Of a stretch of DNA of 64,000 nt, positions 3,416 through 28,139 are shown in pieces (position 1 is the stretch's first letter; the number at the start of each line of letters is the position of its first letter). Under the pieces are notes generated by a model. The model was not told the DNA's origin, made no database searches, and saw only the letters and a program-made list of their open reading frames with translations. Origin of the DNA: an uncultured Alphaproteobacteria bacterium (GTDB lineage Bacteria > Pseudomonadota > Alphaproteobacteria > Rs-D84). The DNA lies in NCBI GenBank assembly GCA_944390125.1, contig CALXOX010000001.1, positions 385,364 to 449,363 on the forward strand. Direction: 5' to 3'. The position numbers and the translations under genes are program-made.

Positions 3416-3469
3416 ATTTGGGATTTTTTTGTCTAGATTTTATTGCTTTATATTGCAATAATACTTATT

Positions 3470-3650
3470 GCACTGGACGACTACCAATGCGGGGCGTGAT
3501 AACCTCTGAAGTTGTCGGAAACGACATAAAACATTTACTCCAACTAAGCGTTGCAGGTTGGAGGGTCGTGATATATATGAATAAACGACGCTATTACTTC
3601 AATAGTTATCAACCTCCAACCGCCATTAGTCAGGCGGCGTTTTTATTTGC
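3470..3650 (+). ncRNA. C4/CI-antisense-like structured leader RNA / attenuator (copy 1)
   Basis: P1 GGTTGGAGG(3556-64)/CCTCCAACC(3613-21); P2 GTCGT/ACGAC; P3 GCTATT-ACTTC-AATAGT; loop and bulge complementary to upstream TGAAGT and TGATAAC; terminator overlaps P1; same layout at 27000-27225. Confidence 0.65.
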
Positions 3651-3678
3651 ATTTTTTGCAAAAAATAGGGGAAATACT

Positions 3679-4269
3679 ATGAAGAAAATATTATGTTTAA
3701 TTAGCTTACTTTTGTGTGATGCGGCATTTGCGGTGGGGACACCTACACTCTATTACTGTAATTGTGGGCCTGGTTATGAAAGTACTAATAGCGTTTATAA
3801 TCGTTTGGATGCGTGTAAAAGTTCAAGTGATACAGAATGTATAGTGTCATCTTCGTCAACTGGATTTGTGTACAGAATGTCATATCAGGAAGCAGAACCA
3901 GCCTGTGGTGTGTGTCAGTGTTATTCAACTGTAAATGACTGGGAGTATAGCAGCTATTGTACGGTAAAAAGGACTAATATCAGAGTTTATGATAGCGGTG
4001 AGTTTTCAACAACTTGCAATTATGAATTTGAAACAGACGTTGGGTGTGATGACGGATGTTATATGGAGTGGTATGAACCTCAGGATCGTGATATTGGGTG
4101 TACAAGCTGTCCCAGAGTTTCTGATGATTGGACAGATTGTTATGGAAGAAGCAAAATAGGAAATAAACAAGGAATAGATGGATGCTGGCTTCCTTATTGT
4201 GGTAATATGGACGATGAAACTGGTACTTGGGTTATTACGGAAGACGAAAAATGCTTTTATCAACAGTAA
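3679..4269 (+). CDS. Cys-rich secreted hypothetical protein
   Basis: AGGGG RBS then MKKILCLISLLLCDAAFA signal peptide; about 17 Cys in mature part; the ORF-track start at 3403 runs through the terminator and leader RNA. Confidence 0.8.
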   Translation: MKKILCLISLLLCDAAFAVGTPTLYYCNCGPGYESTNSVYNRLDACKSSSDTECIVSSSSTGFVYRMSYQEAEPACGVCQCYSTVNDWEYSSYCTVKRTNIRVYDSGEFSTTCNYEFETDVGCDDGCYMEWYEPQDRDIGCTSCPRVSDDWTDCYGRSKIGNKQGIDGCWLPYCGNMDDETGTWVITEDEKCFYQQ

Positions 4270-26510: not shown

Positions 26511-26810
26511 ATGGATATGGAAGCATTGATGGCACAGGCAAGTGCTTTGCAGGATAAAGTAACGGCAGCCCAGGAACAGTTGGCGTCTATGCATGTAAAA
26601 GGTATTGCGGAAGAAGGGGCTGTTATTATCGATATGACTGGTAAGTATGATTTGGCAGGTATAAAAATTCGTGAAGATGTAATGTCTCGTGGTGCCGCTG
26701 GTGTTGAAGCCTTGATTTCTGCTGCATATAATGATGCCAAGGCGAAAGCAGATGATTTAATTGACCGTGTAATGGGTGAAGCAACGGCAGGTATGCCAAT
26801 GCCTAAATAA
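26511..26810 (+). CDS. YbaB/EbfC nucleoid-associated protein
   Basis: LMAQA..LQ.K...AQE.L....V.G; LI.AAYNDA. Confidence 0.88.
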   Translation: MDMEALMAQASALQDKVTAAQEQLASMHVKGIAEEGAVIIDMTGKYDLAGIKIREDVMSRGAAGVEALISAAYNDAKAKADDLIDRVMGEATAGMPMPK

Positions 26811-26858
26811 AAAACTGGACAAGTGGAAAAAAATAGTTTATTATTCAGCCACTGTTTC

Positions 26859-26935
26859 GGATGTTTAGCTCAGTTGATTAGAGCATCTCGTTTACACCGA
26901 GAGGGTCGGGGGTTTGAGTCCCTCAACATCCACCA
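26859..26935 (+). tRNA. tRNA-Val(TAC)
   Basis: GGATGTT/AACATCC acceptor, TCTCG-TTTACAC-CGAGA anticodon arm, CCA end; unusual A19 and T56. Confidence 0.95.
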
Positions 26936-26943
26936 GAGATTTT

Positions 26944-26966
26944 AACCGCCGTATGGCGGTTTTTTG
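26944..26966 (+). terminator. Terminator after tRNA-Val
   Basis: AACCGCC-GTAT-GGCGGTTTTTT. Confidence 0.85.
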
Positions 26967-26999
26967 ATTTGCGTTCCAGTGAAAATATTATATCATACT

Positions 27000-27225
27000 C
27001 TACAGAATCCACAGGGATGTGGTTTCGGGGCTGTAGCAAGCCTATACATGCGGTGCGTAAGCATCGTTATTCTGATGTTTCGGTGCTGGCGCGCCGTTAT
27101 GTCCCCGATGACATTGGTCGGGGAGCCGTTCGTTATAAAAAAGGCAATGCTGAAGACAACGGAATCATTCATGTATTGATTGCTAACTCCCCGACCGCCT
27201 TCCTTTGGCGGTCTAATTTTTATGT
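27000..27225 (+). ncRNA. C4/CI-antisense-like structured leader RNA / attenuator (copy 2)
   Basis: P1 GGTCGGGGAG(27116-25)/CTCCCCGACC(27187-96); P2 CCGTT/AACGG; P3 AATCA-TTCATGTAT-TGATT; loop and bulge complementary to upstream ATACATG and TAGCAA; terminator GACCGCC/GGCGGTC overlaps P1. Confidence 0.65.
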
Positions 27226-27236
27226 TGGGGGATAAT

Positions 27237-28139
27237 ATGAAAATCTCGATAATAATACCGGCATATAACTGTGAAAAGTATATATGTCAGACTTTAGATT
27301 GCATCAGAACGCAGACTTTTCCTCAGAAAGATATGGAAATAATAGTCTTTCTTGATGGTTGTACTGATTCTACGCCATTTGAGGTTGTTGAGTATTCAAA
27401 GAAACATCCAGATATGAATATAAAATTATTGAAAGTTGATGAAAAGCAAGGACCATCAAATGCTAGGAATTGCGCTTTACAATGTGCAACTGGTGAATAC
27501 GTTCATTTTTTTGACGCAGATGATGTTATAAATCAAGATTTTTATAGATTACTATATGAGGCCGCAAAGAAAGCGGATTCAGATATCGCAGTGGCTTCAT
27601 TCAGTCATGAACGCTTCCCAAATGATAGTGTCATCTTTACCGATTCGATAGTTTTATCAGTTCCTCAAGATAAATTGAATGCCACAAAAGTTGATAAGCA
27701 TGGGTTTTCATGGCGATATTTAATAAAGCGAAACTTTTTACAAAAGAATCATTTTCTGTTTCCAACTGATATGAAATATTGTGAAGATATGCTGATAATG
27801 ACGAAATGTATATATTACAGCAATAACATTGTGTTAGTGCCAAAGGCTTTGTATGTATATAAATACAGGCAGAATTCATTACTAACAACACATGAAACAA
27901 AGCGGGAACAAAACACTTACTATAAACAGGCAAAAATACAAGTTCGTGTTTTCTTATCTCAGTTTGATTTATCACCGACAAGAAATTATCATAAACGGAC
28001 GAGATATGTTTTATTTGGGCTTATCCCACTCATACTTACAGTTGATAGAGATGAATGTAATAAAATATATTATCTGCTTGGTATAATTCCGTTATTTAGC
28101 CGTAGAACGAACTATAAGCAAGAACGATTGGTTATTTGA
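27237..28139 (+). CDS. Family 2 glycosyltransferase
   Basis: ISIIIPAYN, DGCTD, GPSNARN, FFDADD, EDM; AT-rich. Confidence 0.93.
   Translation: MKISIIIPAYNCEKYICQTLDCIRTQTFPQKDMEIIVFLDGCTDSTPFEVVEYSKKHPDMNIKLLKVDEKQGPSNARNCALQCATGEYVHFFDADDVINQDFYRLLYEAAKKADSDIAVASFSHERFPNDSVIFTDSIVLSVPQDKLNATKVDKHGFSWRYLIKRNFLQKNHFLFPTDMKYCEDMLIMTKCIYYSNNIVLVPKALYVYKYRQNSLLTTHETKREQNTYYKQAKIQVRVFLSQFDLSPTRNYHKRTRYVLFGLIPLILTVDRDECNKIYYLLGIIPLFSRRTNYKQERLVI

Follow-up and report, generated by a model that had tools for sequence, protein, structure and literature searches.

A C4-like leader RNA with copy-specific pairing codes, repeated before envelope genes in a reduced alphaproteobacterial genome

A structured leader RNA upstream of a glycosyltransferase gene

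A structured leader RNA of about 225 nucleotides (nt) lies 5' of a glycosyltransferase gene in the genome of an uncultured alphaproteobacterium (GTDB lineage Rs-D84; assembly GCA_944390125.1, contig CALXOX010000001.1). It occupies positions ~26964-27222 on the + strand of the window, by which we mean the whole stretch of 64,000 nt that was analysed (contig positions 385,364 to 449,363) and to which coordinates refer unless another record is named. The RNA is built around a three-way junction (helices P1, P2 and P3) of the type found in C4 RNAs and in sRNA-Xcc1, and it carries near its 5' end two short codes, a and b, complementary to two segments of that junction, a' and b'. Sibling copies of the element in the same genome carry different codes, each copy being complementary to itself. 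The element has a C4-like build and probably shares C4 ancestry, and our preferred interpretation, to which we give about an even chance of being right, is that the leader is a cis-acting, self-addressed transcription attenuator derived from RNAs of the C4/sRNA-Xcc1 kind.

The initial sibling copies were obtained by blastn of the element against its own 897-kb genome, and a covariance model of the 3' core, R1, was built from six copies. The copies in this genome divide into subfamily A, whose P1 is GGTCGGGGAG, and subfamily B, in which it is GGTCAGGAGG or GGTTGGAGGG. Besides R1 we used a MAFFT alignment of 44 full-length subfamily-A copies, which was not fitted to any structure and is called the 44-copy alignment below. 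The parts of the leader, with the evidence for each, are as follows.

26964-26991, + strand: sigma-70-like promoter TTGATT-16 nt-TATTAT (motif scan), with a predicted transcript start at ~26998
27005-27026, + strand: hairpin H0, GAATCCACA-GGGA-TGTGGTTTC (sequence; covariation in the 44-copy alignment)
27026-27030, + strand: G-run CGGGG, 5' of hairpin Ha (sequence; CGGGGC spans 27026-27031)
27029-27042, + strand: hairpin Ha, GGCT/AGCC, arms 27029-27032 and 27039-27042 (sequence; 88.5% paired in the 44-copy alignment)
27034-27039, + strand: code a, TAGCAA, in the loop region of Ha (sequence)
27044-27050, + strand: code b, ATACATG, complement of b' (sequence, duplex tests, pattern search)
27051-27066, + strand: middle hairpin M1, CGGTGC-GTAA-GCATCG (sequence, covariation)
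27081-27096, + strand: second, variable middle hairpin (sequence); the variable middle region as a whole is 27051-27096
27102-27108, + strand: C-rich decoy TCCCCGA, complementary to the P1 5' strand (pairs with 27118-27124 in the minimum-energy fold)
27116-27196, + strand: three-way junction P1/P2/P3 of the C4/sRNA-Xcc1 type (97.2 bits with R1; covariation)
27116-27125 and 27187-27196, + strand: P1, GGTCGGGGAG/CTCCCCGACC, 10 bp (sequence)
27126-27130 and 27158-27162, + strand: P2, CCGTT/AACGG (sequence); whole P2 27126-27162
27163-27167 and 27177-27181, + strand: P3, AATCA/TGATT (sequence)
27170-27176, + strand: b', CATGTAT, in the P3 loop (sequence)
27180-27185, + strand: a', TTGCTA, in the joiner between P3 and P1 (sequence)
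27193-27221, + strand: intrinsic terminator GACCGCC-TTCCTTT-GGCGGTC, arms 27193-27199 and 27207-27213, followed by the T-run TAATTTTT (motif scan)
27227-27232, + strand: Shine-Dalgarno (SD) sequence GGGGGA (sequence)
27237-27239, + strand: ATG start codon of the downstream gene, ~15 nt or less past the T-run (sequence)
27237-28139, + strand: family-2 glycosyltransferase gene of 300 amino acids (Pfam PF00535, E 7e-29)

Every motif that the original prediction had read from this stretch was found in its place, and the region as a whole folds far better than expected by chance (RNAfold z-score -5.17; none of 200 shuffles folds equally well). The motif scan delimits the terminator motif as 27193-27213, followed by TAATTTTTAT, and found no + strand promoter motif between 27000 and the ATG. 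A TAnnnT resembling a -10 site lies within 22 nt 5' of H0 in 20 of the 23 aligned copies with sufficient upstream sequence, and across the family the SD and start codon follow 11-27 nt beyond the terminator. The predicted overlap of P1 and the terminator was also confirmed: the terminator 5' arm and the P1 3' strand of this copy have GACC in common, and the terminator stem uses the last three columns of P1 in the alignment, for an overlap of 3-4 nt overall.

Codes differ between copies and match within each copy

Duplex tests compared the pairing of each copy with itself and with its siblings. In this genome, the duplex of a copy's a/b with its own b'..a' region averages -15.6 kcal/mol against -10.3 with those of the other copies (16 copies), and the mean for own pairs was reached by none of 20000 permutations. 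The same contrast is seen in 49 foreign copies (own -18.6 versus -11.6), a set that includes six with failed automatic detection of the P1 3' strand (L037, L040, L041, L042, L047 and L213), and within a single genome rich in copies, G019 (own -17.0 versus -10.5). In G019, 40 of 49 R1 matches were examined and 39 analysed, one stretch being cut by a contig end.

The copies of G019 also show how the codes vary. The b'..a' region is distinct in 38 of the 39, a few a words are combined with many b words, and three otherwise near-identical copies differ solely in a/a', with the change fully compensated. In other species, leaders before glycosyltransferase genes have different codes without loss of complementarity, and four of them have the same a while b and b' change together. 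Such a pattern would be expected if selection keeps the codes distinct, and also if copies exchange the inner b..b' block.

The original prediction had described this element as the second of two in the window, with codes entirely different from those of the first. The other element (copy 1) exists on the + strand and belongs to subfamily B, with its a/b site at 3498-3512 and its core at 3554-3651 (R1 and duplex tests). Its codes are GATAAC/GTTATC for a and TGAAGT/ACTTCA for b, its P1 is GGTTGGAGGG/CCTCCAACC, and it has a terminator motif of its own (window 3430-4269). It precedes a 196-amino-acid, cysteine-rich protein that starts at 3679, with a signal-peptide-like start and no Pfam match. 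That the codes of the two copies differ while each is internally complementary is borne out by the duplex tests, and across aligned copies a covaries with a' (below).

Searches for partners of the codes elsewhere returned mainly the elements themselves. The exact a-N(0-9)-b pattern of this copy occurs at two places in the 897-kb genome, here and as the trivial antisense of b'..a'; 11 of the 16 copies likewise match only at their own site and on the trivial antisense strand, and the other five, which have short codes, have one or two extra matches. A seed search, exact and with one mismatch, gave no trans target in the 897-kb genome. Nor was a second target pair, a2/b2, found at the downstream ribosome site, where duplexes were -9.0 for own and -8.6 for other copies, a result reached by 1130 of 5000 permutations.

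Compensatory changes support the helices

Two alignments were used to examine the helices. In the first, 48 cores were aligned to R1 and are hence fitted to the model; 95.5% of their cells are paired, against 29-51% in slid controls, with changes on both sides at 25 of 29 pairs. The 44-copy alignment, free of any fitted structure, gave the following values.

H0: 92.9% of cells paired, changes on both sides at 7 of 9 pairs
M1: 93.2% of cells paired, changes on both sides at 5 of 6 pairs
P1: 97.7% of cells paired, changes on both sides at 3 of 10 pairs
P2: 81.9% of cells paired, changes on both sides at 9 of 9 pairs
Long-range a:a': 89.8% of cells paired, changes on both sides at 5 of 6 pairs

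All four Watson-Crick pair types occur at three columns of the long-range a:a' helix, and the terminator stem is 97.3% paired, including the three columns that it shares with P1. The parts conserved in sequence are the internal loop of P2 (ATAnAAnA / GAAAG), the loop of H0, and P1. The middle hairpin does have the predicted GNRA loop in this copy; as a family feature the GNRA loop fails, being present in just 9 of the 44 copies with no conservation of the loop sequence, and a tetraloop-receptor role was rejected on this ground.

Two mechanically called open reading frames (ORFs; 71 and 88 amino acids, both with TTG starts) overlap the RNA element in window 26964-27235, and the covariation of the helices argues that they are not genes. 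A leader peptide was also considered, since an ATG within b opens a frame that runs to 27179, and was rejected: b differs among the other copies and no SD precedes it.

A family of leaders in Rs-D84 and beyond

R1 returned 20 matches in this genome, of which 16 have the whole architecture on inspection, one lies at a contig end and is a probable copy, and three are only terminators. A further probable copy came from the sRNA-Xcc1 model, giving 16 verified and two probable copies in total. Among related genomes R1 matched in 35 of 41, including all 24 in the genus and 10 of 16 from other families of the order, with up to 49 matches in one 1-Mb genome. In a class-wide sample it matched in 15 of 149 other families, and the copies read there keep the same layout. 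Among named records, strong matches are in metagenome-assembled genomes (MAGs) titled Candidatus Enterousia, in gut 'Alphaproteobacteria bacterium' records and in one 'Rickettsiales bacterium'; Microvirga and an Acidobacteriaceae MAG have copies that match less strongly yet keep the complete architecture. Candidatus Enterousia (order Rs-D84) consists, according to the accessible part of its description, of gut bacteria with genomes below ~1 Mb (PMC12306168). The genome studied here probably falls within this group. In G019 many copies lie within ~300 nt of contig ends (e.g. C3:119-238, C4:150-267, C6:119-241, C13:178-298 and C32:49-169), as expected if repeats break assembly, so that copy counts in draft genomes are lower bounds.

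We also scanned contigs for the pattern of the P1 strands. Genome contigs gave at least 120 stretches, and the 80 of these that were put to R1 yielded 15 matches. Four genome-contig loci outside the family were run through Rfam, and at all four the pattern sits on a tRNA; among the viral contigs, 10 of 18 matches are tRNA-Pro. These tRNA matches, many of them from Sphingomonadales records, are an artefact of the pattern. The subfamily-B pattern had no match in the viral contigs, and blastn of the element against phage and plasmid collections gave none either. A few family members were found on IMG/VR contigs. One variant (G000:C4:26921-27109) keeps its a/b code, GTGGTG../GCAGACG, and its promoter region across several species and on an IMG/VR viral contig (L226:5251-5363, L120, L061 and L034); it precedes non-secreted proteins and may ride on a mobile element.

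The leaders precede genes for envelope and secreted proteins

An SD-preceded ORF starts within 45 nt of the leader in 51 of the 59 copies with enough downstream sequence. In 39 of these 59 the downstream protein has a signal-peptide-, lipobox- or membrane-like N-terminus by a crude rule, against 229 of 772 background ORFs of this genome. In 28 other genomes, 29 loci with glycosyltransferase homologues were compared, and 10 of them have an R1 match immediately 5' of the gene. No tRNA was found near the glycosyltransferase loci of other species in the seven checked, five of which have the leader; because the leader recurs at glycosyltransferase loci that lack a tRNA, the RNA goes with the gene and not with the tRNA-Val gene that adjoins it here. 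Together with the absence of an intervening promoter, the regular downstream ORF and the recurrence with glycosyltransferase homologues support a role in cis.

In this genome, 13 of 18 copies precede proteins of 130-250 amino acids with 6-10% cysteine and signal-peptide-like N-termini (e.g. G000:C1:388917, C1:141000 and C3:69748). These cysteine-rich proteins may form a large family of secreted or surface proteins.

Covariation points to two competing pairings of P1

Both the P1 3' strand and the decoy are supported as partners of the P1 5' strand, for which they would compete. The helix between decoy and P1 5' strand is 89.3% paired in the 44-copy alignment, with seven changes on both sides at column pair 227:258, and the P1 column that covaries with the decoy also covaries with the P1 3' strand. 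In RNAfold, the minimum-energy fold of all 16 copies from this genome is the long-range form, with a:a', b:b', the decoy hairpin and the terminator formed and none of nine P1 pairs; forcing P1 costs 4-16 kcal/mol.

Several observations weigh against taking these pairings, and the attenuator and full two-state switch proposed from them, as established. The energy ranking is incomplete, as RNAfold cannot score the pseudoknotted form in which a/b dock on the C4 fold. The b:b' helix is paired in only 54.5% of cells of the 44-copy alignment, a low value that follows from the variable length of b, while the duplex tests do support b:b'. A helix between the G-run and the P1 3' strand is possible in 92% of cells but hardly varies, and its informative cases are mixed, with about two in support and three to four contrary; one between the G-run and the decoy was rejected as no better than shuffles (159 of 500). 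With an overlap of so few nucleotides, a shortened P1 could coexist with the terminator. The distant members L057, L211 and L218 lack the T-run or the hairpin, so termination is not universal in the family. Finally, the sole metatranscriptome contig, from public runs available as contigs only, which cannot show RNA ends, covers 26627-26893, outside the element.

Of 16 genes linked to the element, 8 have GGGG near the SD when read by eye; among background starts, defined crudely, the figure is 127 of 618. This is a weak hint of an added effect on translation, through possible pairing of the GGGG with CCCC in either the decoy or the P1 3' strand.

A candidate mechanism and its alternatives

If the leader is an attenuator, a and b would dock on a' and b' of the same molecule, and the decoy would take the P1 5' strand, leaving the P1 3' strand free so that the terminator could form; the default would then be a short RNA with the gene off. 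Closure of P1 in the C4 fold would instead remove the base of the terminator stem and let RNA polymerase read into the gene. The copy-specific codes would prevent cross-pairing among paralogous leaders in one cell. The trigger might be the locus's own C4-like RNA, once released or processed, if it acts on a/b of a nascent transcript; a protein and RNase P are the other candidates. We infer that termination is regulated, as well as which conformer is 'on' and what the trigger might be. The two conformers may alternate in vivo and, as the original prediction proposed, the codes may switch genes independently for antigenic variation.

One alternative, which we consider unlikely though well worth weighing, is that the element is a stand-alone gene for a trans-acting C4-type small RNA (sRNA), whose transcription stops at the terminator of the element and which RNase P perhaps cleaves where P1 begins. 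Its a'/b' targets would be imperfect or would lie outside the genome (in phages, mobile elements or other cells), the upstream a/b would serve for self-masking or as a processing aid, as proposed for a1/b1 of phage P1, and any read-through would be incidental. The architecture is the same as that of phage P1 c4 and sRNA-Xcc1, and the few family members on IMG/VR contigs suit such an RNA. So does the occurrence in Acinetobacter baumannii of multi-copy chromosomal C4-like sRNAs that are apparently processed from longer transcripts, according to the accessible text of PMC5320573. The P1 stem begins with GGT in 38 of the 44 aligned copies, this one included, and RCCA follows it in 23 of 44, which recalls, in the accessible parts of two reports, the GGW motif at the RNase P cut site of C4 (PMC5320573) and a role of 3' RCCA in RNase P cleavage (PMC12710915). 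However, RCCA is replaced by GCCT in this copy, and where present it is buried inside the terminator stem. A trans role is further opposed by the lack of a second a/b-type site in the 897-kb genome and of any blastn match in the phage and plasmid collections, and by the fixed orientation and short distance to the SD and start codon, which leave no room for another promoter.

We also doubt, with comparable reserve, that the leader has one static, compact fold, a C4-like junction with a/b docked as pseudoknots, which a protein or ligand would bind to control all the envelope genes jointly, the codes being ordinary covarying helices. P2 does vary and covary as much as a:a' (at all nine pairs), the P2 internal loop, the H0 loop and P1 are conserved in sequence, and the downstream genes are of one functional class by their N-termini. 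A single fold would, however, have no need of a decoy that is conserved and covaries with the P1 5' strand. The three near-identical copies of G019 that differ only at a/a', and the distinct (a,b) combinations in 38 of its 39 copies, likewise argue against it, and no ligand pocket or binding protein has been identified.

A bolder version of the attenuator seems to us quite improbable as a whole: a bistable self-addressed switch in which the RNA released at the terminator, or its processed C4-like part, would act back through the unique two-part code on nascent transcripts of its own locus and no other, turning dozens of surface-protein and glycan genes on and off independently. It would amount to RNA-based phase or antigenic variation. 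Selection would keep the codes distinct, and recombination of the inner b..b' block would reshuffle them. Least credible of all is the view that the element regulates nothing and is a selfish repeat, or the decayed remains of a prophage or mobile element, next to tRNA-Val: the high copy number, the G019 copies at contig ends, the variant with the C4:26921 code on a viral contig and the adjoining tRNA-Val would suit it, but the neighbours are core genes, tRNAs are absent from all seven glycosyltransferase loci checked in other species, the copies keep a strict orientation and distance to start codons, every helix shows compensatory changes, the link to downstream genes is consistent, contrary to the decayed-fragment scenario raised with the original prediction, and no terminal repeats were seen, though no repeat search was made.

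The locus and its setting

The tRNA-Val gene lies upstream of the element at 26859-26935 and has its own promoter-like site and terminator. A match to isrK of 21 bits (cut-off 50) in window 26905-26966 covers the 3' half of this tRNA and its terminator and was read as chance. The core genes that neighbour the locus are pnp, ybaB, a Pal/OmpA-like gene, rlmN and lptD. The sequencing runs that contain the window are mostly chicken-gut metagenomes.

C4-type antisense RNAs are familiar from phage immunity, and others occur as scattered small RNAs. In this lineage the C4 module and its a1/b1 partner appear to have lost the ribosome-site target and gained a terminator, and the module has multiplied to 16-49 copies per genome of 0.9-1 Mb, standing before secreted, lipoprotein, outer-membrane or glycan genes. 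This lineage of gut bacteria, which is uncultured, has reduced genomes and would be expected to possess few protein regulators. Should the leaders really act as switches, they could be one of its main means of controlling the cell surface. In any case the family offers hundreds of naturally occurring, orthogonal RNA-RNA address pairs that share one scaffold, which is of interest for RNA folding and for synthetic biology.

Comparison with C4, sRNA-Xcc1 and classical attenuators

The C4-like character originally proposed holds for the architecture, namely a junction that carries b' in the loop of P3 and a' in the joiner, preceded by an a/b site placed as a1/b1 of phage P1; it does not extend to membership of the Rfam C4 family, to an a2/b2 pair or to a trans target. 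Phage P1, our positive control, scores 68.8 bits with the C4 model and 51 bits with c4-a1b1. The C4 model (RF01695, cut-off 45 bits) has no match at E<=10 in the region, the window or the whole genome, the c4-2 model (RF02944) has none in the genome, and no other Rfam family matches the element at gathering score or E<=10. The c4-a1b1 model (RF03163, cut-off 46.7 bits) does not match this element; its best match in the genome, at 17.3 bits, falls on the a/b region of another copy, and controls also match in 14 of 14 genomes.

The layout of the 5' part resembles that of c4 with a1b1 in phages P1 and P7: a promoter, a pair of neighbouring hairpins of which the second shows a1 in its loop, b1 a few nt 3' of these, and a spacer of ~65 nt. 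The annotated order in phage P1 is promoter, a1, b1, c4, a2, b2, icd. The leader shares with c4 the three-way junction, in which the P3 loop holds b' and the joiner between P3 and P1 holds a', a P1 stem that usually starts with GGT, and codes that differ between copies, just as the a/b codes differ between the c4 RNAs of the heteroimmune phages P1 and P7. It differs from C4 in its shorter P1 stem (10 bp versus ~17 bp) and in its long P2 with a conserved internal loop. Unlike c4 of phages P1 and P7, it has no a2/b2 over a ribosome site and instead has a terminator overlapping P1; it is also chromosomal, present in at least 16 copies, and placed before envelope genes rather than icd/ant. In phage P1 (L048, AF234172, 48325-48360), an ACGCCC upstream of c4 could pair with GGGCGT in the 5' strand of the closing stem, in a putative decoy-like arrangement.

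By score, the closest known family is sRNA-Xcc1 (RF02221), with seven matches in this genome at 27-50.7 bits (cut-off 53), all but one of them on sibling copies found with R1; its model has no match on this copy itself, and the Microvirga member of the family scores 36.3 bits. In a phylum sample the model exceeds its cut-off in 24 of 151 genomes. We read 14 genuine sRNA-Xcc1 loci (L278-L291) and found upstream an a in a hairpin loop, followed by b, and in most of them a second a/b pair that flanks the SD of the next ORF; the downstream duplexes were -18.3 for own and -14.9 for other copies. Genuine sRNA-Xcc1 thus has a2/b2 at the SD, whereas the leader family lacks it and has a T-run terminator in its place. 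Both are multi-copy, but the leader family reaches a far higher copy number per megabase. Rfam does not place sRNA-Xcc1 in the C4 clan despite its full C4 layout. These observations suggest that sRNA-Xcc1 and C4 are one kind of cis-encoded regulator. sRNA-Xcc1 occurs in integron cassettes of Xanthomonas. In the accessible parts of two reports, seven copies are given for Xylella (PMC12189769), and sRNA-Xcc1 is described as trans-acting and located upstream of symE in integron cassettes (bioRxiv 10.1101/2025.06.18.660453).

The Group 1 C4-like sRNAs of A. baumannii resemble the leaders in having many chromosomal copies with a variable a' within longer transcripts, as far as the accessible text of PMC5320573 goes. 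According to the same text, they are gammaproteobacterial and match the Rfam C4 motif, which the leader family does not, and that text describes for them no matching a/b in cis, no terminator overlapping P1 and no fixed place before envelope genes (PMC5320573).

By analogy only, the leader also resembles classical attenuators, T-box elements and riboswitch platforms, in that the 5' arm of its terminator can pair upstream, within P1, and a decoy competes for the antiterminator strand. Unlike classical attenuators, it has no evident ligand, tRNA or leader peptide, and its sensor would be a C4-type junction that pairs with its own 5' end.

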